IMG/VR virus record: IMGVR_UViG_2671180089_000001
Coordinates: 62,325 to 126,324 of that record
Length of the DNA stretch: 64,000 nt
Source: a virus
Lineage: Duplodnaviria > Caudoviricetes
Direction: 5' to 3' (one strand)
Made by a program: the position numbers and the translations under genes
Shown: positions 17,356 through 42,066 of the stretch, piece by piece
Position numbering within the stretch: the first letter of the stretch is position 1
How the letters are laid out: every line of letters begins with the position of its first letter
The notes under the pieces: generated by a model
What the model saw: the letters and a program-made list of their open reading frames with translations, nothing else
What the model was told of the DNA's origin: nothing
Databases searched by the model: none

Positions 17356-17388
17356 CAGCGTCCTCCGTCGTCCTGTGGTGGTACGTGG

Positions 17389-17420
17389 GAGGGGGCGCAC
17401 CCGTGCGGGTGCACCCCCTC
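17389..17420 (-). terminator. Stem-loop after major capsid gene
   Basis: GAGGGGG.GCACCCG-tg-CGGGTGC.CCCCCTC. Confidence 0.6.
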
Positions 17421-17433
17421 ACTGCGGCACGGA

Positions 17434-18735
17434 TCAGCCGGCCGGCTGGGTCCAGGTGCCGATGACGAAGGACTCCGGCCGCGGGACCTCGAGCGCCAGG
17501 CGCTCGTCGGCGCGGAAGGTGATCAGGCCCTTCTCGTAGTTCTCCGCGTTCTCCGAGGAGACGGTGACGGAGACGTTCTCGCGGTCGTGGAGCTGCGCGC
17601 CGAGACCGAACGCACCGATGAGGAAGTCGGTGTCAGCCATCGCGGTCGTCTCAACGACGTTGAGGCGCCACACCTTCTTCTCGGCGCCGATGGCGACGGC
17701 GATGGCGACGCGGAAGGCGCCGTTCTTGTCCTCCTCGACCTCGACGTGCTCCCACATCGTGGGCGACAGGACGATGCCGGTCGGGTCGTACTCGGCGAGC
17801 AGGGCCTTCGTGATGCTGCGCCGGATCTGGACGCTGTACTGGTCGGTCGCGATACCGGTGTACTGCTGAACGCCCGGGGTGTTGTAGATGCCGGTGAGGG
17901 ACTGGCCGTCGCCGACGGAGTGCAGGAGGTCCCAGTCCTCGGCGTACTTGACGCCCTCCACCATGCGGGTGTTGATGAAGGTCTTGAGGCGGGGCTCGTC
18001 GGACAGGATGTTCTTGTGCGCGTCGAGCAGGTGGGCGACCTCGGCGACCGGGTACATCACGGGCGTGAGCGTGAGCTTCGACCGCGGGGCGCGGCCCCAG
18101 GTGTCGGTGTCGGCGCCGGTGGCCGGCGACGTGCCGTCCGCGGCGTACCGCTCCTTGACCTGGCGGGCGTTGTTCGTCCAGCCGGTCTCTCGCGCGCCGT
18201 AGAGCACGGCGTTCTTGGTGGTCGACTTCGGGAACAGGTCGCGGATGTGGAACTTCCGGAACGGGCGCTCCGTGATGCCCAGGTTCTGCGCGGAGCCCAG
18301 GGTCTGGTGGGTCACGGTGCCCGCGGACAGGGAGAAGATGGACTTCCCCTCGATGTCGGCGCGGATGTACGGCTTGTCACGGAAGTGCTGGGCGGTGGCG
18401 CTCTGGAAGGAGCCGGACTCGACGAAGAGGTCGCCGAGGGATTTCTCCTCGACGCCCATGGGGCGCTGGCCGTAGTGGCTGGCCGCGGCCGGCGCGGACT
18501 CCGGGGCCTCGAGGTACTGCTTGATCTCGGTCAGGCCCTGCTCGGCGTCGATGAGGGCCTTGATCTCCTGAGCCTCGCCGGAGACCTTCCGGAACTCCCG
18601 GGCCTGCTCGGTGGAGACGACGAACTGGCCGCCGTCCTCGACCTTGAAGGTCTGGCTGATCCGCTCGGCTTCGGCGGACTTGACCTGGAGCGCCTTCTGC
18701 AGCTCCTCGATACGGCTGGTGGTGGCGGTAGGCAT
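17434..18735 (-). CDS. Major capsid protein (HK97 fold)
   Basis: Coiled-coil delta domain, GDG..LTGI, FRADERLALEVPRPESF C-terminus. Confidence 0.95.
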   Translation of the reverse strand: MPTATTSRIEELQKALQVKSAEAERISQTFKVEDGGQFVVSTEQAREFRKVSGEAQEIKALIDAEQGLTEIKQYLEAPESAPAAASHYGQRPMGVEEKSLGDLFVESGSFQSATAQHFRDKPYIRADIEGKSIFSLSAGTVTHQTLGSAQNLGITERPFRKFHIRDLFPKSTTKNAVLYGARETGWTNNARQVKERYAADGTSPATGADTDTWGRAPRSKLTLTPVMYPVAEVAHLLDAHKNILSDEPRLKTFINTRMVEGVKYAEDWDLLHSVGDGQSLTGIYNTPGVQQYTGIATDQYSVQIRRSITKALLAEYDPTGIVLSPTMWEHVEVEEDKNGAFRVAIAVAIGAEKKVWRLNVVETTAMADTDFLIGAFGLGAQLHDRENVSVTVSSENAENYEKGLITFRADERLALEVPRPESFVIGTWTQPAG

Positions 18736-18817
18736 TTGGGGTGCTCTCCCTGTGCTGGGTGCGGTTGACGTGCGTCGCTCGCCCGGCCAGCACCGGGACG
18801 CCTCAACGCGAGGCGTG

Positions 18818-18848
18818 ATGAAAGAGAAGGAGAGGGGTTAACGTCGCG
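18818..18848 (-). promoter_or_regulatory. Late-promoter-like motif
   Basis: CGCGAC GTTAAC N13 TTTCAT upstream of capsid gene. Confidence 0.7.
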
Positions 18849-18959
18849 TGCTGCCCGCTTGGGACGTCAAGAGCGGGCAGCACACGGGGTTTGACCTGCT
18901 GCTTTGTTCTCGGAGGTGTGTAGGGCCCGCAGGGAGAGGTGCGGGGTCGGGGATGTAAC

Positions 18960-20885
18960 TCAGCTCCGCATCAGGGCGAGTGCGGCCTTCACCTCGTCGG
19001 GGTCCAGGCGGACGGTGTCCTCCGGCTTTGCCGCCGGTTCGGCGTCCTCTTCCTCGTCGTCGTCCTCGGGGCCGGTGTTTTCGTCGTCGCCGAAGGTGCT
19101 GTCGTCCCAGAGGTCCAGTCCGGCACTGCCGCGGGCCGGGCCGCCCGTGGCCGGGGGTTCCTCCTCGTCGCCGACGTCGAGGCCCTTCGCGGACAGTGCG
19201 GCGATCAGTTCCTGGACCTTGTCGCGGACGTCCTCGAGCTGCTCCGGGCTGGCCGTACTGCTGCTGACACGGGCGGTCGCGTCGGCGAGTGCTCCGACGG
19301 TCGGCTGTACGACGCGGGCGTCGACGTCCTCGTCTGCGGAGGCGGTGCGGGCCGCGCTAGTGCCCTCGGGCACGACGATCGTGGCGAGCTCCACGGGCTG
19401 CGGCTTGTCGAGGGTGATCTCGCCGGCCGTCACCGTGTACGGGATGGCGTAGTGGCTGCTGCGCCGCTCGTCCTCGGTGTGCACGGAGACGATGACGCGG
19501 TCGGGGTAGGTGCCCTCGATGCAGGTCCAGGTGTTGCCGTCCTGGTCGAGGAGTTCGCGGACGGCGTCGGCAAGACGGGCGCGGAACTGCTCCTGCGACT
19601 CGGGCAGCGTCTTGGGCGACATCACAGGGGCCTCCAGCGGGGCGGAGTGGCTCTTGGCCTCGGCGACCATGGAGCGGGCGGATTTGTGCTCGATGCGGGG
19701 CAGTGCGCGGGCGGACTTCACAGCGGCGTGCGCGGACTTCTTCTCGCCGCCAAGGGCCTGGTAGCGGCCCATGACTCCGTCGGCGAACTCCTTGGCCTGG
19801 GGCGAGGCCTTCGGGCCAGGGGCTTGGGGGAGGGCGGCGCCGGCCAGGAGAGCCCACGGCGTCTCGCGGCACTCCGGCCGCAGGAGGGGCATGTCCGGGA
19901 GGGCCGTGATCGGCCACCAGGCGGTTACCTCGGTTGCGTCGCCCTGGGGGTCGTCTGGGTTCGTGACTCGGCGCTCTCCGTGTGGCGCGTTGATCGGCAC
20001 GGAGTCCTCGGTGGGGACCACGGCGACGTAGCCGCGGTAGATGCCGTTCGGGGCGGTCCAGGAGCCGACGACGCTGGCCGTTCCCGGCAGGGTCGACCCA
20101 GTCTCCTCGGCCCACTCGCGCAGGGCGGCCGCCAGGGGATCCTCGCCGTCCTCGAGGTGCCCTCCGGGGATTTCCCAGGTGCCTGCCGCGGGGTCCTCAT
20201 CGTCGAGGGCGCGCTGAATCATGAGCAGTCGGCCGGTGTCGGCGGCCTTCACTGCCAGGCCTGCGACCTTGATGGCTTCCGCGTTCGGTGTGGTGACGAC
20301 GTCGATCTCGACGTGGGACGGGGTGGTCTTGTACTCGAGTCCCTCGTATCCGCCGCCGGTGACGGCCGCGGACTTTACCTCGAGGGCGCGCGTCAGGGGG
20401 TGCGCACCGTGCAGGACGGGCGAGACCTCGAAAAGGTCCAGGTCGTGAATGATCCTGACGCCGTCGCCACGCTTGCTCGCGCCGGTGTCGGAGACGCGGT
20501 AGCCGATGCTGAACGCGGCCTGCTTGTGCTCGTGCCACTGCTTGACCTGCTCGTAGGCGTCTCGGCCCTGACGGGTGCGCAGGTTGTAGATCACAGTCGC
20601 CACGAGGGCGCCGGCTTCGGCGGGCCAGTCGCCGGGGACGTCCCGGAACCGAGGGTCGCCGGGCAGCCATTCCTCGCACTCGACGACGACGCCGACGGGG
20701 TCTTTCCACCCGTGGTGCCACACGGTCTTGACGGGGCGTGCGGCCAGGGTGCGGGCGAAGGCGCCGGGCACGATGAGGTCGGCGACCTCGTCGACCACGC
20801 CGGTGACGGCGTAGATAGCCCGGCTGGTGCCTCGCTGGGAGGTGCGGGGTACGGCGGATCTGGTGGGTGGAGCAGCGGTCGGCAC
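18960..20885 (-). CDS. HK97-type prohead protease fused to a NUDIX hydrolase and acidic scaffold-like tail
   Basis: WHH, FSIGY and LFEVSPV protease motifs; Nudix box GHLEDGEDPLAAALREWAEETG. Confidence 0.9.
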   Translation of the reverse strand: MPTAAPPTRSAVPRTSQRGTSRAIYAVTGVVDEVADLIVPGAFARTLAARPVKTVWHHGWKDPVGVVVECEEWLPGDPRFRDVPGDWPAEAGALVATVIYNLRTRQGRDAYEQVKQWHEHKQAAFSIGYRVSDTGASKRGDGVRIIHDLDLFEVSPVLHGAHPLTRALEVKSAAVTGGGYEGLEYKTTPSHVEIDVVTTPNAEAIKVAGLAVKAADTGRLLMIQRALDDEDPAAGTWEIPGGHLEDGEDPLAAALREWAEETGSTLPGTASVVGSWTAPNGIYRGYVAVVPTEDSVPINAPHGERRVTNPDDPQGDATEVTAWWPITALPDMPLLRPECRETPWALLAGAALPQAPGPKASPQAKEFADGVMGRYQALGGEKKSAHAAVKSARALPRIEHKSARSMVAEAKSHSAPLEAPVMSPKTLPESQEQFRARLADAVRELLDQDGNTWTCIEGTYPDRVIVSVHTEDERRSSHYAIPYTVTAGEITLDKPQPVELATIVVPEGTSAARTASADEDVDARVVQPTVGALADATARVSSSTASPEQLEDVRDKVQELIAALSAKGLDVGDEEEPPATGGPARGSAGLDLWDDSTFGDDENTGPEDDDEEEDAEPAAKPEDTVRLDPDEVKAALALMRS

Positions 20886-20944
20886 GGCGGGGAACCTCCG
20901 GCGGTGGACAGTGGGCCGCCGGGCACCGTGCCGTTCGCGTTGAC

Positions 20945-21163
20945 CTACTGTCCTGCGCTGCCCTCCGCAGGCTGCTGAGGCCGCGCCTCAGCTTCGGAGC
21001 GGGCCATGGACCACCCGCGGTTCCAGTAGCGGTATCCGAACCGCTCCTCGACGCTGCCGTACATGTTGTACGGGCAGGCGTCGGAGGGGTCTCCGGCCTC
21101 GTACGCGGCCTTGCCCTCGTTGAGGCGGTCCTGGAAGTTCTGACGGTCGAGCTGAGTTGCCAC
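20945..21163 (-). CDS. Small Rmf/CrpP-fold-like protein
   Basis: EG.AAY..G.....CPY.........W..GW pattern. Confidence 0.6.
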   Translation of the reverse strand: MATQLDRQNFQDRLNEGKAAYEAGDPSDACPYNMYGSVEERFGYRYWNRGWSMARSEAEARPQQPAEGSAGQ

Positions 21164-21175
21164 GGTCGGATCTCC

Positions 21176-21817
21176 TTACTGGCCCGCGAACATCGAGTCC
21201 TGGACGCCGCGGTCGCCGGCCGGGGGCGGGCCGCTCGGGGCGGCTCCTCCTGGTGCGTTCGCTCGGTCCTCGCCGTTGCGGTGCGTCTGCGTCATCTGGG
21301 CACCGTCAACGTCGGTCGCCCACGCGTCTGGGTCGGTGTAGCGCCACACTTGGCCCGCGCCGTCCCGCACCCACCCGGTCAGTGTGCCGTCTGCGGCCTT
21401 GTCGAGCCAAGCCTGTTCGCCGCTGCTGCCGGTGTACGCGCACCAGGCTTCGGGCCCGTCGGGGTCGGTTTCGTCGCCCTCGTTGTACTCGTCGCCTGCC
21501 CACGGGCGGGAGTCGTCGTCGGGTTGGTCCAGGGCGGCGCTGGGGTCTCCGCCGCCTTCTCCCTCGGGCTGAGCACCCGGGTCCGGCGGCGCAGCGGGGT
21601 TCTCGCCGAGGTTGTCCGTGGGCGCGGCCGGGGTCGCCGTTGGGTCCTGAGCCAGGTTCTCGTCCAGGTCCTCGGTCAGCTCGTCGGAGACGCCGGGGGC
21701 GACCTCGTCGAGCGGAGCCTCTTCGGTGCCCACGGTCTCCTCGTTCTCGTCGTCTTCCTCCCCGAAAGGCTTGCCGCCCTGGGGGAGAGCCTTGATGGCG
21801 AATCCGTATCTGGTCAC
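21176..21817 (-). CDS. Acidic hypothetical head-region protein
   Basis: GTG start 6 nt after promoter motif; acidic low-complexity region plus Trp-rich C-terminal domain. Confidence 0.65.
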   Translation of the reverse strand: MTRYGFAIKALPQGGKPFGEEDDENEETVGTEEAPLDEVAPGVSDELTEDLDENLAQDPTATPAAPTDNLGENPAAPPDPGAQPEGEGGGDPSAALDQPDDDSRPWAGDEYNEGDETDPDGPEAWCAYTGSSGEQAWLDKAADGTLTGWVRDGAGQVWRYTDPDAWATDVDGAQMTQTHRNGEDRANAPGGAAPSGPPPAGDRGVQDSMFAGQ

Positions 21818-21823
21818 AGGCGG

Positions 21824-21854
21824 AGGATGGGGGCACGGGGTGGCTTATGTCGCC
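21824..21854 (-). promoter_or_regulatory. Late-promoter-like motif
   Basis: GGCGAC ATAAGC N13 CATCCT, 6 nt before GTG. Confidence 0.7.
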
Positions 21855-21878
21855 GCCACCGCCTCACCCCGATCCGGC

Positions 21879-21905
21879 CAAGATCATTCTTGCCCAATTG
21901 GGCAA
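21879..21905. repeat. 27-bp element containing palindrome TTGCCCAATTGGGCAA, copy 2
   Basis: CAAGATCATTCTTGCCCAATTGGGCAA. Confidence 0.9.
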
Positions 21906-21915
21906 GCGGCCCGGA

Positions 21916-22185
21916 TCAGCTTCCGGGCACGCGCGGTCGCCGCGGAACGGGTCCGCTCGCCTCGATGACGTTCGTGTACTCGCGGAGCACCGCCAGGACG
22001 GACGCGTCGTCGTCCCCAGCAACGGCAGCCAGGGGGCCGGTTGGTGAGAGGGCGACGCGCTCGCCCAGGTGGAGCTCCACGAGGGCCGCAGCCCGGTACG
22101 ACCCGACCACCGGGCGGTCGGCCCGCCCGGTGATCTGCACGGTGTAGGTCGCACCGTCGTCGAATGAACCGGTGACGGTGAACAC
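21916..22185 (-). CDS. Small hypothetical protein directly after the giant gene
   Basis: AAGGAGG RBS overlapping the giant-gene stop; GTG start VFTVTGSFDDG. Confidence 0.65.
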   Translation of the reverse strand: MFTVTGSFDDGATYTVQITGRADRPVVGSYRAAALVELHLGERVALSPTGPLAAVAGDDDASVLAVLREYTNVIEASGPVPRRPRVPGS

Positions 22186-22196
22186 TTCCTGCCTCC

Positions 22197-25100
22197 TTAC
22201 CTGGTGGCCATCAGGCCCAGGAGGAACGCGCGCAAGTCGTCGTCCTGGTACCAATCGCCGTTGAACATCGCCTGCACGGACCGAGCGAGGGTGTCACCGG
22301 TCTCCGGTTGTGTCTGCTGCCGTCGCAGGAGCCGGTCTATCGCGCTCGGCCGCATCCGGCGTGCGCCGGGCCGGCCGGTGTGCGTCTGGCCGAACCAGAA
22401 CGCCCGTTGCGCGGCGTCCAGGTCGCCGAGGTGGCGGGCGAAGTGCTGCGCCAGGGCGTGCCCGGCGGTGCCCAGTCCCTCGTCGGCGAGGTCGGCGACC
22501 GTCACCCGCTGCCCTTCCGGCTCGTAGCGGCCCTGGTTGCCGTTCAGAGCGGTCATGCGACGCGCTTCGGGGGTGTTGAGCCACGCGCGCGGGATGAGGC
22601 GCTGCACGCCCCGTACGGCGCGCTCGGCGTCCGGGTCGGTACCTGGGCCGAACACGATTGCGTTGGCGCCGTCCGGGCCCATGTCTCGGACGTCGGCCAG
22701 TGCGGCGGCCACGGCGTCGGGCACTGCGGCGGCGTACCGGGCCCGCAGGTCCTCGTACTCCCGGCGGGCGGACGCAAGCTCGCTACGGGCCGCGGTGATC
22801 TCGATCTCCAGGTCTTCGTCGTCCGGGATGGTCGCGCCGCTGCGGGCCGCTTGGAGGTTGACCACGCGCCGCTCACTGGCCGCAACGTAATCGTCGGCGT
22901 GCTGCAGCGTGGCGTGCGGATCGTCGCCGAAGTCGTCACCGAGCACGGCGGACAGACGACGGGTCACGTCCTGGTCGACGTCGTTGCCGGCTGCCCGCAG
23001 CGCCGCCATGTGGCGAAGCGTGGTCAGGCCGGGCCCGCCATCGGCCGCCCTGTCCGGCGCCCACTGGACGCGGTCCGACCGGTCCGGAAGACGGCCCGCT
23101 GCGAGCTGCCCCCACGTCGTCGGACGCCAGAAGGTGACACGGCGCTGCGACTGACCGAACCGGCCAGGCTCCGGCATGAGTCCGGCCCAGTGGGAGATCC
23201 GCGCGGCCAACGAGTCGCCGTCCGCGTCAGGCAGGTTCACCGCGCGGTGCAGGCGCGCCAGGCGGCGCGACTCCGGCAACTCCCGGACACGGCGGACCAT
23301 GCGACCCAGGAACGCACGAAGACGGCGCAGGCGCTCGCGTGAGCTGCGGTACTTCTCGGCGATCTTTCGGGCGCCGGCCTTCACCAGCTCGGCGAGGCGC
23401 TTGGCCATCCGGACCAGGAAGGCGACGATCCGGGCCAGGAGGCCCGGCTGCCGTCCGGCGTCCGGGTTCGCCGCGGCAACCTGGGCCGCGATCCGGCGGG
23501 CGGTCGCCTGCCGAGAGCCGGCCATCTGCTGGGTGAGGATCCGGGCGAGCCGTTCCGCGTCGCCCGGATCCACCCCGGCGGCCTGGAGCTGCTGCAGGAG
23601 AGCGTTCACCGCGTCGTCTGCGTGGCCCGTGACGGCGGTCGTGACGTCCGGGTCGGCGTCCGGGTCCGTCGTCGACGGGCGGCCGGCGATCTGGTCCGGA
23701 ATGAGGCGGAGCAGGTCCCGGGCGCGGGCGGCCAAGTCCTCGTTGCTCTCCCCGTCCAGGGGCTCGAGGTCGTTGATGGTCCGCAGGGCCGCGCGCACGG
23801 TGTCCGCGTGCGCCTGGTTGCGGGCGTCGCGGAGACGACGCTGGGCGGCCCCCCGGTCCCGCCCGGTGAGGCCCGTAGCGTCGAGTGCGGCGGAACCGTC
23901 GCCGCGGACGGCCTGGCGTGCGTCGCGCAGGGCCTCAGCGGTGAGGCGCTGCGCGATCTGATCCCGCAGGGCATGGATGTCGCCGGGGGGCTCCGTACCT
24001 GCGATGGCCTCGTCGATGATCCGCGCGGCAAGTGCTCGTCCGTGGTCGCTGACGATCCGGTCGACGTCGCCCTGTGCGGCCTGGTTGGGGTCGCGGGGTA
24101 CGCCGGCCGGGGGCAGGGCAGGGGTGGGCCGGTTGCGGTCGTAGACGTTCACGGCGCGGCCGCTGTGCAGACCGAAGTCGTGCACGTTGCCGTCCTCGTC
24201 CATGCCGGTGAGCTGCATCCACCAGCCGTTGCGGTGCGGTTCGCTGATGATGGTGAGCCGCCGGTGGCCGTTGAACTGGTAGCCGGTCCGGCTGACCGGC
24301 GCGTCGATGACGTCGCCGACCCGAAGGCTTCCCGGGCGGACATGGGCAATGGGCGCCGTGGGCTCGTCGGGTGTAGCCGCCGGGTCCGGAGTGGTCGGTG
24401 CGACGGGAGTGGTCGGCGCGGCGGCGGGGTCGCTGCCCACACGGCGCACCGGGCCGCCAGGGGGGTTGGGCCCGGGCCCGCCTTCGGCATCCGGCGCGCC
24501 GTCGGCGTCGTCGACGTCCGGCGGGTTGACGGGGTCCGGCTCGGCCTCGGGGAGCTGCCATACCGGCATGGCTCCGTGGACAACTCGGCGGCGCCACTGC
24601 TGGTCTTCGTCCTCCAGGAGGAAGCTGCGCACGCCCCCAGGGCCGTTCTCAACGTCGATGACACGGAAGACGCGCATCTGGTCGCCTCGGCGCTCGTCGG
24701 GCATGGCCACCAGGTCCCCCTCGCCGATCTGCGCGGCGTTCGCCGGGCGGGGCCGGTCGAGGCCCGCCGGAGGGGTCCGACCGGCGGCGCGGTCGAGGTG
24801 GTCCGCGGCCCGCAGCGCAGCGCGGCCCTCGACCGTCGTGGGGTCCGCGGCCGCGCGCAACTGCGCGGCCAAGGCCGCGGCCTGCTCGCGGGTGACGGGC
24901 AGGTCGGCGGTGATCCGTACGGCGGCCTGCTGGGCGTCGGGGTCGTCCTCCGGCCCATCGGCGTGGTCTCCGATGAGGTTCCGGTCGCTCGAATCGAGGT
25001 CCGGGTCGAGGGTCGGGCCGGTCACCGGGTCCACGCGGCGCGGGGCGGGGTGCACGGTCAGATCCTCATCCGGCTCGGGGGCGTCGTCCGGGCCGAGGTC

Positions 25101-31100: not shown

Positions 31101-33923
31101 GGGCAGGGTGGCGCCGCGCAGGTGGGCGAGCTCCGCGGTGATCTGCTCGTCCCGCATGCTCTTGGGGTCGTCGGCACCCGGGCGGGGCGTGCCGTCGTCG
31201 GCCGGGGCGTCGAACATCGTGCGGATCTCGCCGCCGCGGCGGCGGGCGAGGACGCTGTCGTACGGCGTGGAACCGCGGCTTTGCAGGCGAAGGTTCTTCG
31301 GCCCGATCGAGTCGACCGTGTCCCACTGGTGGCCGGTCCACACCTCGTCGCCGGGCTGAAAGTCCGTGGTGGCCCAGGTACCGGCCGGCGCGTAGTGCCG
31401 GTCCTTGAGCCGCTCGAGCTGCTCCGGGGTCAGCTCCGGCTTCTCGGAGTCGTCCTGCGGCGCGTGGTAGTCGAGACCCTGACGGTCAAGCCACTCCTTG
31501 AGCTGACGCACCTTGTCCTCACGGCGTGACAGCGTCATGTTGCTGGGCAGGTAGAAGAACCGCGGCTGGCTCCTGTCCCTGCTGGCCTTGAACCCGAGGC
31601 GGCGCAGCACCGCGAACTCTTCGTCGCTGACCGTGCCGTTCGGTGTGGGGAAGCGGACGGTAGTGCCGGTGCCGCTGTGGTCGATCTGGACCTGGTCCGG
31701 GGTCGGTGCCGAGGCGGGGGACGGTTCCTCTTCCGGCCCGTTCTGGTCTGGCGCGTTCGTGTCCCGGTCGTTCGGAGCGTCCGGTGCCGGGGTGTCGGCC
31801 TCCGGGGTGTCCGGCGCTGACGGCTCGCTGTCCGCCGTGTTCGCGGACGGGCTGTCGCCCTCCGGCACCTCGGGTGCGTCCTCGGCAGGGTGCAGGACAC
31901 GAAGTTCCTTATCCGGCGCGAGGAAGTGCTCCCCTCCGTCCTCGTCGACGACGCGAATACGGCCCCGCGAGGTCCGCAGCGGCGGCTCCTTCACTGTGTG
32001 CGTACGCCCGTCGGTGTCGACGAACCGGTCCCCGACTTGGAAGTCGGCCGGCTTGCGGGACTGCACGGGACGCAGCTTGCTGGTGTCGCGGCCCTCAGCG
32101 GCAGCGAACATGTCCGGCGTGCCGAAGGCATCGTCGGCCTGGTCGTCCGGGTTGTCCGGATCGGCTACGAATCGCTGTTGCTCGTCCGGGCTGACGTCGA
32201 ACAGGCCGCCGGGCTCCTCGGCAGGTTCCTTCGGCTTGGGCTTCGGCTCCTGCTTCGGCGTACGGCCGGCGCGGCGAGCCTCCTCCGCCTCGAGGACTCG
32301 CAGGCGGGTGCGATCAACGCCGGACAGGTCGCCGCCGTTCGCCATCTCCCGCTCCATCAGGGAAACGATCTCGTCGCGGATCTCGTCGTCGTTCATGGCT
32401 GACGGGGCCTTGGCGGCGCGGGCTGCGGCCGCGGGCGCGTTGACCTCATCAGGGCTCAAGATGACCCCACCGTCGTCGCCCTGTCCGCTGGGCTTCGCGC
32501 CAGGGGCGTCAGCGGGCGGCGAGTCCACGTCGCCCCTGCTGTTGTCGGGAGCATTCGCGTCTGGGGCGTCGGCGCGCCTCTCCTCGCGGTTGCGCTGCAG
32601 CGTTGCCGCAGCCTCATCGACGCGCTTGGTGTAGTTGTTGTACGCCCGGATTTCCTTCGGGTTGGACTCCTGCCCTTCGCCTCCCGCAAGCGTCCACGCC
32701 CACTCGAGGAGCGCGCGGTGCGTCTCGATCGGCGCGGTCACCTTGAGCGTGCCGTTACGACGCCTTGTGGCCTCGGTGAGGGCCTTCCGCGTATCCGGGT
32801 CCTCCATGGCCGCGGTCTCGTCGACGCTCAGAAAGTCGGCGAGAGCTTCCGGCATGGTCAGCGTGACAAGGCCCTCAGGGTCGTCCCAGTTATGCCTCAG
32901 CGGCTCATCGGACGGGTCCTGGTCCGCGGGATGGTTCACGTCCGGGGCCTCGGGCTTCGGCGCGTTCGCCTCCGCCTCCCACTCCTGGCGGGTCCGCTTG
33001 ATGACGGTCTGGATGTTCTCGCCCTTGGCAGAGCGCCAGGTGCTGGCAGTTTCGTCGAGATCGGGTGCGGAGAAGTCGAATCCGCCGTCCGTGCTGGGGG
33101 ATCCGCCGGTGTTGCGGTTGAGCTGCCGGGCGAACTCGCGGGCTTCGTCCGGGGTGGCAAAGTCGCCGGCCGCGTCCATGCGCTGTCCGGTGCCGGTGGC
33201 AGTGAGGTACCAGCGGCCGGTGGAGTCGTCCTGGAGGGCGATCAGGCGACTGTCGTGGGTGACCTCGAGGTGGTCGTCGTCGCCCGCAACGGACCGCAGG
33301 AACTGCGCCATCTGTGGCTTCTGGCCGGGCCGGTCGGCGAGGTCGAGGAAGTGCTGGCGGACCGCAGCGGTGTCACGGAACCGGCCAGGACCGTGGCGCC
33401 GGTTGGGCAGAGCGCGCACGTTGACGGGCAGCTTGCCGTCCTCGGGCTCGTCCCGGTCGTCGTCGTCCTCGGGCCCGGCGGGGTCGTCGTCGTCCCCGAT
33501 CGGGCGGCCGCGGTCGTCGGCGTCGTGCGGGTCGTTAGGGGTGTCCGGGTCGCCGTCGTCGTCCCGGGCAACGCCGTTGCCGCGCCGCGGGTCGCTGACC
33601 CGCTTCTCGTCCTCCTCCTGGACCTTGTTCTCGCTGTCGGTCGGTGCGGAGCCGTCCGGCCGGGCCACCATGGACACCCACTTGGCGCTGGTGGTGTGCC
33701 GACGGCCGTTGAACTCGTTCGGACCGGTCTGGTCCTGAACGAGGATGCGGTCGTTGGGAAGGGCCCGGACGACGCGCGCGAGCTTGCCGCCCCAGAGCCT
33801 GACGGTGCCGCCCGTCTCAATAAAGCGGCCCTTGCTGTCCCGCGGATGCAGGGCGGGATTCCACCTACGGCGGGCGGCCTTGACCTCGAACTCAGCGTGC
33901 TCAGCGGCGGGGCGATTCTGCAT
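22197..33923 (-). CDS. Giant (~3,908 aa) multidomain, probably virion-internal protein
   Basis: 11.7-kb uninterrupted ORF between portal and protease; HPRDSKGRF N-terminal motif; repeated modules; start placed 7 nt after promoter motif. Confidence 0.85.
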   Translation of the reverse strand: MQNRPAAEHAEFEVKAARRRWNPALHPRDSKGRFIETGGTVRLWGGKLARVVRALPNDRILVQDQTGPNEFNGRRHTTSAKWVSMVARPDGSAPTDSENKVQEEDEKRVSDPRRGNGVARDDDGDPDTPNDPHDADDRGRPIGDDDDPAGPEDDDDRDEPEDGKLPVNVRALPNRRHGPGRFRDTAAVRQHFLDLADRPGQKPQMAQFLRSVAGDDDHLEVTHDSRLIALQDDSTGRWYLTATGTGQRMDAAGDFATPDEAREFARQLNRNTGGSPSTDGGFDFSAPDLDETASTWRSAKGENIQTVIKRTRQEWEAEANAPKPEAPDVNHPADQDPSDEPLRHNWDDPEGLVTLTMPEALADFLSVDETAAMEDPDTRKALTEATRRRNGTLKVTAPIETHRALLEWAWTLAGGEGQESNPKEIRAYNNYTKRVDEAAATLQRNREERRADAPDANAPDNSRGDVDSPPADAPGAKPSGQGDDGGVILSPDEVNAPAAAARAAKAPSAMNDDEIRDEIVSLMEREMANGGDLSGVDRTRLRVLEAEEARRAGRTPKQEPKPKPKEPAEEPGGLFDVSPDEQQRFVADPDNPDDQADDAFGTPDMFAAAEGRDTSKLRPVQSRKPADFQVGDRFVDTDGRTHTVKEPPLRTSRGRIRVVDEDGGEHFLAPDKELRVLHPAEDAPEVPEGDSPSANTADSEPSAPDTPEADTPAPDAPNDRDTNAPDQNGPEEEPSPASAPTPDQVQIDHSGTGTTVRFPTPNGTVSDEEFAVLRRLGFKASRDRSQPRFFYLPSNMTLSRREDKVRQLKEWLDRQGLDYHAPQDDSEKPELTPEQLERLKDRHYAPAGTWATTDFQPGDEVWTGHQWDTVDSIGPKNLRLQSRGSTPYDSVLARRRGGEIRTMFDAPADDGTPRPGADDPKSMRDEQITAELAHLRGATLPEGNDPAARAVRRQVTARIRALNDAQSERTFARHRDEVSRRERAGLVRDPARLARLKGEQVQGRDGTLIGAVYKDTKGKWVFVDRDGRTPTSEKYTSRAAAITALNKLTDRRNQRAGEDWKHSAWDDVQPGDTIRVPELGRLEGARVRTVTGWSEPLQVSEIRRGDMGHLHITGSRDGEDVELDVPRTDATFGASKPGTVPEPDRSEAGGGMDWRQMRPDDFGQDERPTAHQDQNRPRPDDELGTPDLFAHGAPDSPEVAPTPESPEAAAAPGAPDASSAPEAPRTAPDAPIRETSPADMTDDDIKEELEELQAWQSRHVSSNGEGPRIQGNAVVALSPVANRRHVLNEEQRNRDNTRRDREEKEKKKQERTEALARAEIGKRNEDGAYPVTVDGKDAGTVGQLARKWRYTNADGQGSPDHYPSRAEAVAALVRNRDVRRENADEDARRERARSAAPEGWALGDRGDVAENDIIRVPVTRQDGNGRPYPVGWRQPVRVNSVNRNDNGTMVLSVSNLDGSRSSISPVFLSHPGDTFAWANDRTRPEPTPAWRHELRTRMADIGDDVATLQRREGLQDPERIQRLQDLIQRVSRGETDDLQGDLRQIRDEAAWLESQFDDPDLELPYETRRTRSWATAARMKAERDLRYPDFQNTGGDTNGPDAPDPDAPTPDAPSAPDEDRAHRARGLFGEGMNAVGGDSLPEMQELDDRLGRADSADDRDAELRDVADRMDALAEQYELAGPQGELAADRFRRAARIARGEQDDRDERLGDDERQDDDGNGPDGESNSDRNDTTSTPDSEDDDQQNGQDEDQAPEGEDDQGEDAQRQGDEESRRQRRDADPDGDATDPDGEPDTGGAGAPGAPGDGGDSNGDQGDDADGPEGGDDDQDVPEDEDDTDEGDEESEDERRRRRRRRRNRRGGNGGPGGGGPGGPGGPGLPRLRLPDFNAPDGAGGGDGGDGNGGHGDGDAANGRGRSPRPRARHRDVDSLRNAWRTGDGLTPGEDTPERRAHLSALADREGLALSPNGGLATYPERQDDGNTVWRFAQARNGTNLPGITLTSDDPEEARALAGRFEELTDRNGDPFDWDVEGGRSASVAAWRDGEGRNLPQALRAVQDDYDQERAGAFALPEDLTTLDDSQLEAAYVQGLGPEDELRVMAEMDRRDGYVDERIRAAVPETPPANADEAEREGRLMDEALGFGDTDVTQPAPVTPGGLRREFDALDEERFQAAMQATGGRMLSPEAEAQGIDPRTLFSGGKYSNKRAKELASPELNHWFDGDDETPGNGRLTYTQYRQREADRALRAEFADIDEARYLAAIAATNGYFFRRQHEAGPIDERELFSGGSMSQFDRWKDVASEELQDWFDANGGRLTFNQFKQSRRDNERTARDLHEEEQRRADEAGDSEDTVTFTADDVAPAPSGDVESAEAATFRFGGHDKMREFADRAELRPVGDGETVWLDGQQIGHISNVYRSDPNRNSVWHARPFFGPDNDQSSRSESRDTAIANLVVRALRDGPVDPTNPSEDVWRTVTAHLADRMWELPESLLDNPEVRDRHDRLSALLDAFRDHRSPSGNLRDDLVQARDDFARLHDLLPATRRTERQRSRLKNRSYWAGRLLDGLGDPESDRQRPHGNDPDGDRQPPRGDDEPQGDSNAPSPAVPAPDEPVNAPEDTPRPQAEPTPEPDPEPIDGQPAHWARVEDLVPGDMVRMSGTTKGGRPVQRAGYVHTAPVLVDVTRRGRTEQMWRTWVTENSDGTGASGNVYTSANATAARAEAPDDVVPGSPASGAQAALRSGDLPNQIPADRDGRGLFPGSTVTGTGDREGTVTGATDTTVSVHWSDGNDDTALSPTTLSVADGQRPDGWTADGHRVTTQNVVSDTDGGLLGPVDDVDGDNVTITTTDGTITRSAGDLRVTGEVRDEAPDTAPVTGIDEPAAADLKDGDVVLLDLDGHLATVAITSPPSRDGDRVTLQYADTTTGEMGEINVDARAILPRAQGPDGGAPDLGPDDAPEPDEDLTVHPAPRRVDPVTGPTLDPDLDSSDRNLIGDHADGPEDDPDAQQAAVRITADLPVTREQAAALAAQLRAAADPTTVEGRAALRAADHLDRAAGRTPPAGLDRPRPANAAQIGEGDLVAMPDERRGDQMRVFRVIDVENGPGGVRSFLLEDEDQQWRRRVVHGAMPVWQLPEAEPDPVNPPDVDDADGAPDAEGGPGPNPPGGPVRRVGSDPAAAPTTPVAPTTPDPAATPDEPTAPIAHVRPGSLRVGDVIDAPVSRTGYQFNGHRRLTIISEPHRNGWWMQLTGMDEDGNVHDFGLHSGRAVNVYDRNRPTPALPPAGVPRDPNQAAQGDVDRIVSDHGRALAARIIDEAIAGTEPPGDIHALRDQIAQRLTAEALRDARQAVRGDGSAALDATGLTGRDRGAAQRRLRDARNQAHADTVRAALRTINDLEPLDGESNEDLAARARDLLRLIPDQIAGRPSTTDPDADPDVTTAVTGHADDAVNALLQQLQAAGVDPGDAERLARILTQQMAGSRQATARRIAAQVAAANPDAGRQPGLLARIVAFLVRMAKRLAELVKAGARKIAEKYRSSRERLRRLRAFLGRMVRRVRELPESRRLARLHRAVNLPDADGDSLAARISHWAGLMPEPGRFGQSQRRVTFWRPTTWGQLAAGRLPDRSDRVQWAPDRAADGGPGLTTLRHMAALRAAGNDVDQDVTRRLSAVLGDDFGDDPHATLQHADDYVAASERRVVNLQAARSGATIPDDEDLEIEITAARSELASARREYEDLRARYAAAVPDAVAAALADVRDMGPDGANAIVFGPGTDPDAERAVRGVQRLIPRAWLNTPEARRMTALNGNQGRYEPEGQRVTVADLADEGLGTAGHALAQHFARHLGDLDAAQRAFWFGQTHTGRPGARRMRPSAIDRLLRRQQTQPETGDTLARSVQAMFNGDWYQDDDLRAFLLGLMATR

Positions 33924-33930
33924 GCCGCGG

Positions 33931-33961
33931 ACCATGCACACCGGTGACCGTTAACGTCGCG
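33931..33961 (-). promoter_or_regulatory. Late-promoter-like motif
   Basis: CGCGAC GTTAAC N13 CATGGT, 7 nt before ATG. Confidence 0.78.
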
Positions 33962-33995
33962 CCCTACCGCGCGGGCGCGACGCGGCGGCCGGCGT

Positions 33996-34208
33996 CTACA
34001 TGGTCTCGGTGAGTATGTGGATAGCGAACCAGCAGGAGAACCCGAACCATCCGACCGCGAAGATCGCTCTGCCGGCCTTGCTGGTACGGGTGCGAAAGAG
34101 GCGTCGGAAGTTCTCGGAAAGCGTGTCGTTCTCCTTCTTGTTGGCCAGGGCGATGCCCTCGGCGACGGCGAAGACGATCGTCCAGACGATCCAGATGGCG
34201 GGCCACAT
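33996..34208 (-). CDS. Small two-TM membrane protein
   Basis: Two hydrophobic Trp-rich helices around DTLSE. Confidence 0.65.
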   Translation of the reverse strand: MWPAIWIVWTIVFAVAEGIALANKKENDTLSENFRRLFRTRTSKAGRAIFAVGWFGFSCWFAIHILTETM

Positions 34209-34214
34209 GGCGGG

Positions 34215-36671
34215 TTACTCCTGGGGGTCGGTGTCGTAGTGCAGACGGCAGCGGCAGTTCACGGTCAGGCCGATCGGGGCGAAGGGGTCGCCGGGGTAGC
34301 GGAGCTTCGCGCCCGCGATCTCGTACGGGGTGCCGACGGGAAGGGTCTTGCCGTGCAGAGCCTTGTGGGCGGGTCGTACGCGGTCGTCCTGGCGCGTGAT
34401 CCACGTCCGGACGACTCCGGGTCCGGCGCTCTCCGCCGCGGCGTCCGCGGCCCCGTTGATGGTCGACACGGCGCACGTTTCAGCGACGCGTGAGACCAGG
34501 ACGGGCGCGGCGGCCTCGTAGAACCGGGTGACGGCGCGCTCGAGGTCCTCGAGCGTGAGCTCCGTCTCCGGGGTGCTCTGGAGGCTGCGCAGCTCCTCGG
34601 CCAGGTCGCCGAGCAGCGTGGTCACGGCCTCTCCGGCGTACATCGCGGAGACGAGAGCGGCTGCCACGGCGGCGGGGGGCACGGTGTCGGTACCGGCGAC
34701 GGCCTGGCCCAGCTTGCGGGCGGTGGCGGTGGCGGCCTGCTGGAGGATTGGGGCGAGGGTGTTTGTCGTCTCCTCCGCCCACCGGGCAGCGCTGACGACG
34801 CGGTCGCCGTCGATGTCCGCGTTGCCGCCGCGGGTGTCGTGCTCGTTCTCCGGCTCCCAAAAGCGCGTGTGCTTGCGGGTCTTCGGGGCGCGGAGCCGGG
34901 CGGCGATGACGCCCTGCTGGCGGGCGAGCAGCGCGGTGAGGGCCGCCTGGACGGCCAGGGACAGGGCGTCGAAGTCGGCGTCGGTGACCTCGAAGCCCCG
35001 GCCGGCCAGAGACTTGGTCTCGACGCGCGCCGCAGCGACGTCCTCGGCTGCCGGCCCGTCCTCAGGCTGCGCGGTGGCGGTACGCGCCGCGGTGACGTCG
35101 CCGGCTGCGGGACCGGGGCCGAGGTCGGTGGCCTGCGCGCGGGCTGCGGCAACCTCGTCGGCCGCGGTGCCACCTGCGCCGGTGGGCAGCGCAAGGGGGG
35201 CCTGCCCGCGGGCCAGGGCGACCGCCTCGGCCGCGGTCGGGGCCGCCTCGAGCTCGCGGGCCTCGGCGACCGCCGCGGCGGCGGACTGGCCGTCGGCCGA
35301 GGGCAGCATGGCGTTCGGGTCGGTGCCCGGAGCGGCGCCGGCTTCCGGCTCGGGTGCCAGGCCCAGGGCGGCCGCATCCTCGTCGTTCGCGGGCACGGGA
35401 GCCTTCTGCGGGCTGATCCACAGGGCTCGGGACTGAGGCGTGTTGAACGGCTGCCGGTTGGCGATCCTCCGGTACTCGTCGATCGTGATCAGGCCCGCCT
35501 CGAACTCCTTGCGGGCCTCCTCGCGGGCCTGGCGGCGGGGGAACTCGAGCGCCTGGACGCGGCTGGTGTCGAACCGGATCACCCAGTCGTCGGACAGGTC
35601 CGGGTCGAACGCCGACGCAATCAGGTTGAGGTGGGGAAGCTCCGTGTGGGACCAGAAGTTCCACTCTTCCCGGTCCGCGTTGTTAAACGTCCGCTCGGAG
35701 GCGTTGCCGATGACGGACTCGTACACGCCGAACGCGGAGAGGATCTCGTTCTTCGCGGTACTGGAAAGGGTCTCGTAGGCCATCTCCCGGGGACGAGCGG
35801 AGGTGTCCACGTAGGTGACGCCGCCAGGGCCGGTGCCAACGAGGGTGAGCTGTCCGGCGTTGTGCGCGCCGGGGGCGAGGCGCTTCTGGATCCGGTCGAC
35901 CTCGTTGGGGTCGACGCCGTCCAGGTCGATGCCGACGATGCCGCCGGGGCGGCCGTCGTTGTCGATGAACGAAATGTTGTAGGTGCGCGCCTTCACGTCC
36001 AGGTCGACGGACAGGCCGGCGGCCTCAAGGGGCGTCACGCCGCAGAAAGGATCCGTGGGGTGGGGGTCGCGCAGCCAGATGACGTACTTCGGCTTGAGCT
36101 CGCGGATGTGCCCGGCGTAGTCGGTGAACTCGAAGTGCTTGACGTAGCTCGCGTTCTCGTCGTCCGGGATGATCCGTACGCGGTCCGGGGGCAGCAGGTC
36201 GAGCCTGGTCAGGACGCCGCCGCGGCTGTACGTCTTCTCGATGAACACGCCCTTCTTGCTGAGCAGCAACTGGGCGCTCAGGCGCTTCTTGAAGACGTCA
36301 CCGGTCTCGAGCGGATTGGCCTGCTTGTTCAGCAGCCGCAGGAGCGGGTGGTCCTCGAGAATCTCCTCGAATTCCCGCTCGTCGCCGCCGCGGCCGATCT
36401 GCACCGGGAGAGTGGAGGCGTGCTTGCTGATGGCCTCAACGCTCTTGAACGTCCAGATGGAGCGCTCGTAGCCCTCGACGATGACCCGCTCGAGGTCCCA
36501 GCCGTCCGCGCGGCCCGGGGTGCCCCAGACGTTCGTGACGCCGGCGTACGACACCGACGTGTAGACGCCTCCTGCCAGGAGGTCCTTCGTCTCGGTGGGC
36601 GCGGGTGAGGGCTCTGCGGTGCCTCGGGGGACGAGGAGCCCCCGGAGCGCGGGGAAGAGTTGGCGTGGCAT
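34215..36671 (-). CDS. Portal protein fused to C-terminal MuF (gp7-like head morphogenesis) domain
   Basis: GVTPLEAA, NDGRPGG and GLITIDEYR portal motifs; WITRQDDRVRPAH...PGDP...NCRC MuF motif. Confidence 0.92.
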   Translation of the reverse strand: MPRQLFPALRGLLVPRGTAEPSPAPTETKDLLAGGVYTSVSYAGVTNVWGTPGRADGWDLERVIVEGYERSIWTFKSVEAISKHASTLPVQIGRGGDEREFEEILEDHPLLRLLNKQANPLETGDVFKKRLSAQLLLSKKGVFIEKTYSRGGVLTRLDLLPPDRVRIIPDDENASYVKHFEFTDYAGHIRELKPKYVIWLRDPHPTDPFCGVTPLEAAGLSVDLDVKARTYNISFIDNDGRPGGIVGIDLDGVDPNEVDRIQKRLAPGAHNAGQLTLVGTGPGGVTYVDTSARPREMAYETLSSTAKNEILSAFGVYESVIGNASERTFNNADREEWNFWSHTELPHLNLIASAFDPDLSDDWVIRFDTSRVQALEFPRRQAREEARKEFEAGLITIDEYRRIANRQPFNTPQSRALWISPQKAPVPANDEDAAALGLAPEPEAGAAPGTDPNAMLPSADGQSAAAAVAEARELEAAPTAAEAVALARGQAPLALPTGAGGTAADEVAAARAQATDLGPGPAAGDVTAARTATAQPEDGPAAEDVAAARVETKSLAGRGFEVTDADFDALSLAVQAALTALLARQQGVIAARLRAPKTRKHTRFWEPENEHDTRGGNADIDGDRVVSAARWAEETTNTLAPILQQAATATARKLGQAVAGTDTVPPAAVAAALVSAMYAGEAVTTLLGDLAEELRSLQSTPETELTLEDLERAVTRFYEAAAPVLVSRVAETCAVSTINGAADAAAESAGPGVVRTWITRQDDRVRPAHKALHGKTLPVGTPYEIAGAKLRYPGDPFAPIGLTVNCRCRLHYDTDPQE

Positions 36672-40585: not shown

Positions 40586-40682
40586 TCTTTTCTCCTTCTC
40601 AGTGAACTGGATGGGGTGGTGCACCCCGGCGCGGGGCACGAGTTGGTGACGTCCCTGCGTCGGGAGACTGTGGGAGCCCTGA

Positions 40683-42064: not shown

Positions 42065-42066
42065 GG

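Follow-up and report, generated by a model that had tools for sequence, protein, structure and literature searches.

The stretch of DNA analysed here, a window of 64,000 nucleotides, spans positions 62325-126324 of a single 126,324-bp contig with a G+C content of about 70%, and it forms the right half of the genome of a Streptomyces phage akin to Gilgamesh. Encoded in its head module are a portal–MuF fusion, a giant protein, a protein in which a head-maturation protease is joined to a NUDIX hydrolase, and a major capsid protein. We found that these four proteins carry a short motif, a hydrophobic residue followed by Glu-x-Lys and a small residue, at domain borders or just behind an N-terminal leader, and that the protease gene has a swappable cargo slot, which holds a NUDIX domain, a 2H phosphoesterase domain, both or neither, with a motif site at each junction. 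The motif, its specificity for head proteins, its conservation, the modular slot and a common leader can all be read directly from the sequences. We consider it likely that the head protease, which is of the S78 type, cuts at [hydrophobic]-E-x-K↓S/A/T (the arrow marks the cut) and frees enzymes and the giant protein as capsid cargo. Of the two parts of this proposal, sequence statistics and comparisons make it quite probable that the motif is a cleavage code, and we regard packaging and delivery of the freed proteins as a reasonable proposal, about as likely as not to hold.

A lysine-ending motif at the borders of head-protein domains

The preliminary description of this DNA listed nine E-x-K sites, each of which translates as written on the minus strand, where all window features given below also lie. 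Two are in the portal–MuF fusion: TETK29↓D (36585-36593), after the portal leader, and VETK553↓S (35013-35021), at the end of the linker to MuF. The giant protein has FEVK21↓A (33879-33887) at the end of its leader. In the protease–NUDIX protein, LEVK171↓S (20373-20381) directly follows the protease domain, LEYK186↓T (20328-20336) is a second site before the cargo domain, and GEKK383↓S (19737-19745) and IEHK401↓S (19683-19691) lie in the post-NUDIX linker. The capsid protein has VEEK98↓SLG (18442-18450), within or at the end of the delta domain, and IEGK131↓SIFSLS (18343-18351), at the likely mature N terminus. To these we add two protease-protein sites that were absent from the list, EAK411↓S (19653-19661) and DEVK633↓A (18987-18995), the latter in the terminal helix. 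Pfam and PHROG scans bore out the accompanying domain assignments (an HK97-fold capsid, an S78 protease–NUDIX protein, a portal–MuF fusion and a giant protein without a family). The placement of the motif at borders in the capsid, protease–NUDIX protein and portal–MuF linker, and near the N terminus of the giant protein, also stood, and the motif is both conserved and head-specific.

Shuffling the capsid, protease–NUDIX and portal–MuF sequences revealed a strong excess of these sites. Together the three proteins contain 16 E.K (5.43 expected), 9 E.K[SA] (1.03 expected) and 7 E.KS (0.29 expected), counts that none of 1,000 shuffles reached. For the genome as a whole we used our own rough gene call of 106 open reading frames (ORFs; 31,621 residues, 75% of the genome covered), in which E.KS occurs eight times, seven of them in the three head proteins. 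The eighth, in an ATP-grasp enzyme, was rejected as a cleavage site and taken as chance because it has no hydrophobic residue at P4, a feature that the genuine border sites have in common (P1 is the residue before the cut and P1′ the residue after it). The pattern [LIVMF]E.K is found 15 times genome-wide, and the 9 occurrences outside the three head proteins compare with 11.4 expected. Restricting P1′ as well, to [LIVMF]E.K[SAT], leaves seven sites in all 31,621 residues, every one in the four flagged proteins: capsid K98 and K131, protease-protein K171, K186 and K401, portal K553 and giant-protein K21. At the eight other genomic [LIVMF]E.K sites, P1′ is K, P, K, R, D, R, H and G.

Conservation and head specificity in relatives

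We aligned the proteins of the window with those of Streptomyces phage Gilgamesh and of eight viral-contig loci (n = 10 sequences), and 21 further loci supplied portals and giant-protein starts. The preliminary description had proposed conservation in homologues and enrichment in head proteins as checks on its sites, and both came out in its favour. Lys is kept in 10/10 sequences at both capsid sites and at K171, K186, K383, K401 and K411 (at K401, locus L004 reads IQHK, with Gln for Glu). The exception is the C-terminal site DEVK633↓A, which is kept in 8/10; it was downgraded to doubtful as a cleavage site, the Lys being lost in distant relatives even though the helix is kept. Directly after the protease domain, LEVK171↓S is kept in 10/10 relatives. 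At LEYK186↓T, E-x-K is likewise kept in 10/10 (as LERK in L011), and the site recurs as LE[YHR]K in divergent representatives and genome loci.

Counting [LIVMF]E.K[SATG] across 30 viral loci, whose protease proteins have a C-terminal domain 37-73% identical to that of the query, gave 122 sites in 20,150 residues of protease protein (6.05 per 1,000 residues) and 59 sites in 13,148 residues of 29 capsids (4.49 per 1,000). The 262 other plus-strand ORFs of these loci contain 8 sites in 107,942 residues, and 3 of the 8 are in a misfiled capsid, that of L061. A second set comprised 47 Streptomyces and Actinacidiphila genome loci, of which 44 protease ORFs were read (L089, L100 and L105 were unreadable). 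Here the protease proteins have 160 sites in 28,556 residues, 37 capsids have 72 in 16,620 and the other ORFs have 6 in 59,316. Protease proteins thus carry about 6 and capsids about 4.4 sites per 1,000 residues, against 0.07-0.10 in neighbouring ORFs in both sets.

Parts of the pattern extend to more distant phages. Gordonia phage GMA6 and Brevibacterium phage Cantare have capsids of 33-36% identity and the same gene order, and both keep the Lys after the protease domain and the Lys at the second capsid site. Their large proteins have an N-terminal E-x-K (FEDK↓A, IEEK↓A), and the portal-to-MuF linker reads VEAK↓SL in Cantare and LERK↓D in GMA6. Cantare also has MEAK↓SLG at the place aligned with the first capsid site.

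A swappable cargo slot in the protease gene

The head-maturation polyprotein of the window has 641 residues (18960-20885; PF04586 38 bits, PF00293 60 bits) and is laid out as an S78 protease, a linker, a NUDIX domain, a linker cassette and a C-terminal domain; Gilgamesh gp52, annotated 'hydrolase', is its homologue. Residues 25-174 form the S78, or HK97-type, prohead protease domain (20364-20813; phrog_80, E = 7e-18). The 38 bits for PF04586 are above the family cut-off of 21, placing the domain in Peptidase S78, and its TIGR01543 score of 43 bits lies below the equivalog cut-off of 59. H58 aligns with H65 of HK97 gp4, which, with a Ser, we take to be catalytic there, and both H58 and S126 (the Ser in FSIGY) are invariant in 8/8 sequences. 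The NUDIX hydrolase domain occupies residues 202-334 (19884-20282; PF00293 E = 2.9e-16, phrog_1198). Its 60 bits compare with a cut-off of 21, and the Nudix box G-x5-E-x7-RE-x2-EE-x-G is intact by translation. As to its substrate class, all NCBIfam equivalog matches are far below their cut-offs, and sequence matches in the PDB are mixed, including MutT-like enzymes and ADP-ribose pyrophosphatase.

The NUDIX domain is followed by a linker cassette with three sites, GEKK383↓SAHAAVKSARALPRIEHK401↓SARSMVAEAK411↓S (19650-19745). K401 and K411 form a canonical double site, 10 residues apart, and E381, K383, S384, K401, S402, E409 and K411 are invariant in alignment A1. The double-site cassette, E-x-K-[STAG]-x5-hydrophobic-E-x-K, is present in 25/30 viral-locus proteases and in 13/65 representatives of the wider family described below, compared with 1/291 other ORFs.

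The C-terminal domain (18963-19652) defines this family. A full HMMER search with protease-protein residues 370-641 against 1.84 billion representatives returned 65 proteins, clustered at 50% identity, that have the domain at their C-terminal end. An AlphaFold2 model of the domain (mean predicted local distance difference test score, pLDDT, 74.5) shows an alpha+beta unit, two helices, an acidic disordered stretch and a terminal helix. A fold search of the PDB with this model gave no match at E ≤ 0.001, the best being designed cystatin-like sheets (E = 0.02), and BFVD returned two uncharacterised phage proteins and weaker 'prohead protease' matches. GFP fused to a segment of HK97 gp4 is encapsidated in HK97 particles (PMC11626933). 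Because the gp4 segment can carry GFP into particles, we think that the C-terminal domain probably serves as a procapsid anchor or binder.

What lies between protease and C-terminal domain differs between relatives. In L011, a 2H phosphoesterase (PF13563, E = 4.5e-14) stands in place of NUDIX and the flanking sites are kept. L004-L007 have an added small domain (phrog_6439) with extra sites around it. The phrog_6439 domain, which has a W-G-T-P-G-D-F motif (about 11280-11500 in L004-L007), was also seen at the N terminus of Cantare gp12 and in P0090; besides serving as an added bead in some protease polyproteins, it stands at the start of separate head-region proteins. Of the 44 Streptomyces loci, 19 have a Nudix box in the slot, 22 have two HxT/S motifs there, 1 has a single HxT/S motif and 2 have neither; one of these last two is a 521-residue form that retains four sites.

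The wider family shows the same modularity. We scanned 46 of the 65 representatives with Pfam, leaving out 19 shorter ones, and found S78 with 2H in 10, 2H without a detected S78 in 3, S78 with NUDIX in 3, S78 with 2H and NUDIX in 2, S78 with 2H, NUDIX and PG_binding_1 in 1, S78 with 2H and PG_binding_1 in 1, S78 alone in 14 and no match in 12. All 65 together contain 170 [LIVMF]E.K sites, against 25.4 ± 4.6 expected and a maximum of 40 in 300 shuffles. In the 17 multidomain members, 82 of the 94 motif lysines map between Pfam domains, a single one maps inside a domain and 11 are in the C-terminal region, the unmatched remainder of a partial Pfam match to the protease domain being counted as linker; every domain junction has at least one motif site. 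The logo of the wider family has L (51%), M (19%), V (17%) or I (11%) at P4, E at P3, A, V, T or G at P2, K at P1, A (27%), S (18%) or T (17%) at P1′ and A (37%) or L (15%) at P2′. From this we predict that the preferred site in the lineage is a hydrophobic P4 (L>M>V>I), Glu at P3, any residue at P2, Lys at P1 and a small P1′ (A/S/T), often followed by Ala or Leu.

These family-wide data also bear on which protease would do the cutting. In some staphylococcal phages, a host protease processes capsid and scaffold proteins, and a Streptomyces enzyme or another phage protease might in the same way act here in place of the S78 domain. We consider this very improbable. The motif accompanies the S78 domain across the 65 divergent representatives and is near-absent from neighbouring phage ORFs. 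A first site, [LIM]E[VI]K, comes right after the S78 domain in most of the 19 listed divergent multidomain representatives, as it does in most of the 44 genome loci, and HK97, the prototype of the family, cuts after Lys.

NUDIX domains also occur in other head proteins. Arthrobacter phages Sonali and Mufasa8 have a NUDIX, 47-48% identical to that of the window, inserted between portal and MuF (Sonali gp3, a portal–NUDIX–MuF protein of 995 residues, L034 2144-5131). In cyanophage Pam4, a NUDIX of 45% identity sits beside MuF (Pam4_13, MuF–NUDIX with about 500 unassigned residues, annotated as a capsid maturation protease, L035 2894-5935). NUDIX therefore recurs on three different head-protein carriers.

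These placements help to weigh a different explanation of the slot, which accepts cutting at the sites but holds that fusion to the protease, an abundant late protein, serves only to set the time and amount in which NUDIX or 2H is made. The enzyme would then act in the producing cell, for example on immune nucleotide signals triggered by late structural proteins, and the share that enters the prohead would be degraded or lost. It is known that HK97-type proteases digest themselves and exit the head, and the mixed or below-cut-off substrate matches of NUDIX and the existence in nature of a viable cargo-less variant, L106, would both fit such a role. Against this, the enzyme is always between the protease and the C-terminal domain and never at a free end, the folded cargo domains are devoid of motif sites and their borders always have them, and the 47% identical NUDIX of Sonali, between portal and MuF, occupies an intracapsid place. 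We therefore judge a role confined to the producing cell to be unlikely.

Capsid, portal and giant protein

The major capsid protein (17434-18735; 433 residues) has the HK97 fold (PF05065 99 bits, phrog_10) and an N-terminal delta, or scaffold, domain of about 98-131 residues. It matches HK97 capsid chains in the PDB, in which chain residue 19 aligns with query residue 152, and has a weak match to the family 3 encapsulin model. VEEK98↓SLG is kept in 10/10 close relatives; E96 and K98 are invariant in 15/15 capsids, as are E129, G130, K131 and S132. IEGK131↓S is present in all 29 capsids identified among the viral loci, in that of L061 and in the 37 genome-locus capsids that were read. HK97 gp5 is cut at K103↓S104 (PMC10275583). 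The preliminary description had given the HK97 cut an EKK↓S context, and this was in error: the cut sequence of gp5 is TFNK↓SLGS, and EKK↓S occurs at 73-75↓76, inside the delta domain. In phmmer alignments, K131↓S132 is no more than 2 residues away from where HK97 S104 aligns. K98↓S99 has an HK97-like KSLG (KSLGD at 98-102 versus KSLGS), seen in a 13-residue local BLASTP match that is not significant (E = 4.1). On position relative to HK97 S104, K131↓S132 is the likely mature N terminus, with BLASTP ambiguous between it and K98.

The portal–MuF fusion (34215-36671; 818 residues) matches PF04860 with 142.8 bits over portal residues 75-405 and phrog_2662 over residues 47-816 (E = 1e-79). Its MuF domain, similar to SPP1 gp7, covers residues ~629-813 (34233-34787; phrog_2468 E = 3e-20, phrog_3517); PF04233 scores 29.2 bits, just under the 29.6 cut-off, and TIGR01641 matches weakly. 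Gilgamesh gp46 is annotated 'portal and MuF-like fusion protein', and the window likewise encodes both domains in one polypeptide. They are joined by an Ala-rich linker of about five AAxxVxxAR repeats that ends in VETK553↓S (35013-35372). The linker-end E-x-K is kept in 19/19 sequences within an otherwise variable linker; P1′ is A (14 sequences), E (4) or S (1). At the portal N terminus, 18/19 sequences keep E-x-K (the start is truncated in L014), with D at P1′ in 12 and S in 6.

The giant protein (22197-33941; 3,914 residues) is acidic and matches no known family. Pfam and PHROG scans gave no match, and neither did a Pfam scan of the protein in four pieces even at E ≤ 1. Residues 2900-3914 had no usable match in the ESM Atlas, and BLASTP detected no relation to the large proteins of GMA6 and Cantare and no internal repeats. 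Relatives of the C-terminal third were found only in close Streptomyces elements, and Gilgamesh gp48 (4,624 residues) differs by 710 residues in length, with block-wise similarity. Around residues 1800-2050 (26000-28500), long Asp/Glu/Gly runs give way to an Arg run and then to a stretch rich in Gly and Pro.

The start of the giant protein has a distinct organization. Its E-x-K, at K21 or at K15 if translation starts at M7 as in database homologues, is kept in 15/15 sequences, P1′ being A (7), S (5) or V (3). The preceding leader varies in length and sequence, and the ~20 residues that follow the site are almost invariant, opening a conserved N-module (33612-33878; RR-W-N-P-x-L-H-P-R-D-S-K-G-R-F-I-E-T-G-G onward). 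A search with residues 1-160 found 30 shorter proteins. The listed homologues, distant ones included, keep hydrophobic-E-x-K just before the N-module, except for a few N-terminally truncated fragments and P0025, which has D for E. One of these homologues, the metagenomic P0031 (2,041 residues), has the same leader and N-module as the giant protein together with methylase, ResIII/SNF2 and Helicase_C matches, and may be an actinophage counterpart of P1 DarB. The N-terminal 30 residues of DarB (250 kDa) suffice to send a reporter into the capsid (PMC9024508). Given that DarB-type P0031 shares both elements and that the first 30 residues of P1 DarB target the capsid, we infer that leader and N-module are a packaging device and that the motif is its trimming point, making the giant protein a likely packaged protein. 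The preliminary description had read the head genes as encoding polyproteins that are cut to free MuF, a NUDIX enzyme and the giant protein. For the protease protein, with its beads-on-a-string arrangement across many relatives, this reading stood. The giant protein, which has a single N-terminal site and no enrichment, is by its sequence not a polyprotein and has only a leader that is predicted to be cleavable.

With all contexts described, we can weigh the possibility that E-x-K is a structural or binding feature, such as part of a helical unit repeated in the linkers (SAxxAVxxAR) or a motif that docks onto scaffold or capsid, and that the fusions stay intact in the virion. The post-cargo sites do lie in a tandem repeat, the portal linker is made of similar AAxxVxxAR units without Lys, the C-terminal EVK is in a conserved helix whose Lys is lost in distant relatives, and the EGK of an RMF-like protein encoded nearby falls within the RMF-profile stretch. 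By contrast, the settings in which the motif is found are unrelated (the border of the capsid delta domain, the leaders of the portal and the giant protein, and the stretches after three different cargo domains), and the P4, P3, P1 and P1′ preferences are identical in all of them. One capsid site is found where HK97 is cut after Lys, and leaders vary freely before a fixed motif. We therefore regard a purely structural or docking role as improbable.

A proposed model for cargo loading and delivery

In the mechanism that we propose, the delta domain of the capsid protein would be removed in the assembled procapsid by cuts at K98↓S99 and K131↓S132. The protease would also trim the 29-residue portal leader, sever the C-terminal MuF from the portal at K553↓S554, take a leader of 15-21 residues off the giant protein and divide its own polyprotein to release the protease, the NUDIX enzyme and the C-terminal domain. 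In relatives, the slot holds NUDIX or 2H phosphoesterase, or both of these, or has a further small domain or one that binds peptidoglycan, or is empty, always with the junction sites kept. As it is flanked by the protease on one side and, on the other, by a C-terminal domain that is a probable procapsid binder, we propose that the content of the slot is encapsidated with the protease; a freed folded domain of ~20 kDa would be too large to leak and so would stay with the DNA. The freed enzyme would then probably be delivered into the next host cell. The cutting itself, retention in the capsid, ejection and the targets of the enzymes are thus inferred steps, and nucleotide immune signals or RNA ends are plausible targets.

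A more far-reaching version, which we put forward tentatively and think more doubtful than the core proposal, is that the protease gene is a natural plug-in loader, so that any domain placed in the slot with L-E-x-K↓S/A sites on either side would be encapsidated in tens of copies, cut free and injected with the DNA. Streptomyces phages would then pre-deliver nucleotide-degrading 2H and NUDIX enzymes, swapped between close relatives as in an arms race, and these would counter immune signalling based on cyclic nucleotides or NAD derivatives, or act on host RNA, before phage expression begins. The same motif and leader would load the 420-kDa giant protein and, in relatives, a DarB-like methylase-helicase.

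Several points weigh against cleavage and cargo release or narrow their scope. The pattern [LIVMF]E.K occurs 6 times in the three head proteins against 1.31 expected, and the maximum of 300 shuffles was also 6; the case depends on the restriction at P1′ and on the comparisons among relatives. Since the three post-NUDIX sites are part of a tandem repeat, they are not independent. At the portal N-terminal site, P4 is T or P, off the consensus, and in 4 of the 19 linker sites P1′ is Glu. The related loci are kin, and their counts accordingly show a kept trait and not independent events. Glu is not always kept in distant relatives; GMA6 is without the first capsid site and Cantare reads YGQK at the second. 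The rule is thus strongest in the Streptomyces clade and in the family of 65 representatives with the C-terminal domain.

Other such points concern cargo and structure. Sonali, Mufasa8 and Pam4 carry NUDIX without the E-x-K motif. The giant protein has no enrichment (6 E.K against 4.2 expected, and no E.KS), and family and homology searches identified no function for it. The AlphaFold2 model of the full-length polyprotein is poor (mean pLDDT 37, from an 8-sequence alignment) and only its secondary-structure outline was used, so that the disorder of the linkers rests on Pfam boundaries. The model also takes it as given that folded enzymes can be ejected through a siphovirus tail. Our literature search found no paper on Gilgamesh and no virion proteomics of this phage group.

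If the motif is a cleavage code, the mature virion proteins and passengers of a large group of actinobacterial phages and phage-plasmids could be read from sequence. HK97-type heads, usually seen as carrying DNA only, would then carry enzymes through a slot in the protease gene. The recurrent passengers, NUDIX and 2H, belong to families that degrade nucleotides, signalling nucleotides included, and these family roles make pre-delivered counter-defence testable with Gilgamesh on Streptomyces lividans. Since the predicted cuts come after Lys, they would be invisible to ordinary tryptic proteomics. With its sites, the slot also points to a simple means by which HK97-like capsids might be loaded with proteins of choice.

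Genomic context

The capsid protein is 91% identical to that of Gilgamesh (MN234216, 129 kb), and the gene order of that phage matches: gp46 (portal and MuF-like fusion), gp48 (hypothetical, 4,624 residues), three small genes, gp52 ('hydrolase') and gp53 (major capsid protein). This shared order identifies the flagged region as the head-assembly module of a Gilgamesh-like phage. The protease gene (18960-20885) lies directly upstream of the capsid gene (17434-18735), both on the minus strand, and the order protease then capsid is also that of Gilgamesh, GMA6, Cantare and HK97. A scan for promoters and terminators over 17000-36900 yielded nothing useful.

Two small genes between the giant and protease genes are conserved. 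One encodes an RMF-like protein of 72 residues (20945-21163; PF04957 weak, E = 0.003, below the cut-off), which is present in 10/10 relatives and corresponds to Gilgamesh gp51, annotated RMF. Its NEGK↓A, although kept in 10/10, was rejected as a cleavage site because it lies within the RMF-profile stretch, residues 6-56. The other encodes a very acidic protein of 213 residues (21176-21817), and all relatives seen have it at this place. It has a conserved start, T-R-Y-G-F-A-I-K-A-L-P; profile scans gave no family match and its sequence contains no motif site. It could be a scaffold-like or internal head protein.

Further from the module, a protein of 179 residues (11222-11761) has the C-terminal D-D/E-R/K-V-R-P-x-H and N-C-R-C pattern that is also present in portal–MuF. 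Its Gilgamesh counterpart, gp61, is annotated 'minor capsid protein', and on this pattern it would be a second MuF-like minor head protein. Upstream of the portal (38188-42184) are three enzyme genes that have the appearance of a graspetide-like, peptide-modifying set; by family match, they encode an MvdD-like ATP-grasp enzyme (39324-40289), a PCMT-like protein O-methyltransferase (38188-39324) and a Methyltransf_19 S-adenosylmethionine-dependent methyltransferase (41165-42184).

About 20 of the 47 related genome loci (L066-L112) are on contigs of ~120-135 kb, the size of a whole phage, one of which is the complete 135,349-bp 'plasmid unnamed1' of Streptomyces kronopolitis; others lie inside chromosome-sized (7-10 Mb) or other large contigs. 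The occurrence of loci on phage-sized contigs, including a complete plasmid, suggests that Gilgamesh-like relatives often persist as separate replicons, that is, as phage-plasmids.

Comparison with known systems

There are well-described prohead proteases that recognize a short motif and cut at it in shell, portal and ejected proteins as well as in their own sequence. What we consider new is the cargo slot. In the literature that we searched, largely the main texts of papers outside subscription journals, we found no Lys-ending logo for the S78 family beyond the HK97 junction and no description of an enzyme slot in a protease gene. Encapsulins offer one general parallel: their HK97-fold shell takes up enzymes through a terminal targeting segment, with no protease step, DNA or delivery. 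An HK97-fold shell is likewise present here, and uptake would again run through a terminal targeting segment.

HK97 is a close parallel. It has the same protease family (PF04586, TIGR01543), the same capsid fold with a delta domain, a Lys↓Ser cut, which here is predicted, and a C-terminal part of the protease able to carry a passenger into the shell, a role that here would fall to the family-defining domain. It differs in that gp4 has 225 residues and no embedded enzyme, the portal has no MuF fusion and the junction, FNK↓SLG, is without Glu at P3.

The single motif for many substrates recalls T4. According to PMC9026906, gp21 recognizes an L/I-x-E motif on shell, core and passengers, processes itself and cuts leaders off ejected proteins. 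Common to both systems would be one short motif for shell, core and passengers (IPI-III and Alt in T4) and short N-terminal leaders, here as a prediction. The T4 protease is of the S77 type with a Glu-ending motif, and its passengers come from separate small genes with a 10-residue leader and are not embedded in the protease. With an S78 protease and a Lys-ending motif, the present system falls outside T4-type capsid targeting, although it would work alike.

The giant phages SPN3US and phiKZ (proteases gp245 and gp175) offer a further parallel. PMC10052503 describes A-x-E sites mapped by mass spectrometry, with a hydrophobic P4 (Val) and Ser at P1′, the removal of propeptides from portal, capsid and ejection proteins, leaders of 20-24 residues and a C-terminal propeptide on the protease. 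These systems use a Glu-ending motif and a T4-type protease without an embedded enzyme, and their sites are mapped, whereas ours are predicted.

In P1, the likeness concerns the giant protein. DarB is a very large head-packaged protein, and P0031, with its methylase-helicase, has the giant protein's leader and N-module. The P1 capsid is cut after Glu (E120↓S121). The giant protein itself has no methylase or helicase match and so falls outside the DarB-like proteins; only its distant relative P0031 has these domains, and the likeness is one of domain build.

Another precedent is that of polyvalent proteins, multidomain effectors with ties to MuF or portal for which Iyer et al. (2017, PMC5512222) predicted packaging and injection. 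The available part of that survey reports fusions of 2H with MuF or portal, an assemblin-like peptidase at the C terminus and zincin-like metallopeptidases as the main processors; in it, NUDIX is mentioned once, as a neighbour or fusion partner of InPase, and not as a polyvalent-protein domain. Several effector domains in one MuF- or portal-linked polypeptide are found here too, in relatives that combine protease, 2H, NUDIX and PG_binding and in the portal–NUDIX–MuF protein of Sonali, with packaging as a prediction. Pfam scans of the four proteins and 46 relatives detected no metallopeptidase family, although remote homologues could escape such scans. In the system described here, unlike in polyvalent proteins, the protease is of the S78 family and stands at the N terminus, and a defined logo, the predicted cleavage signal, flanks each module.

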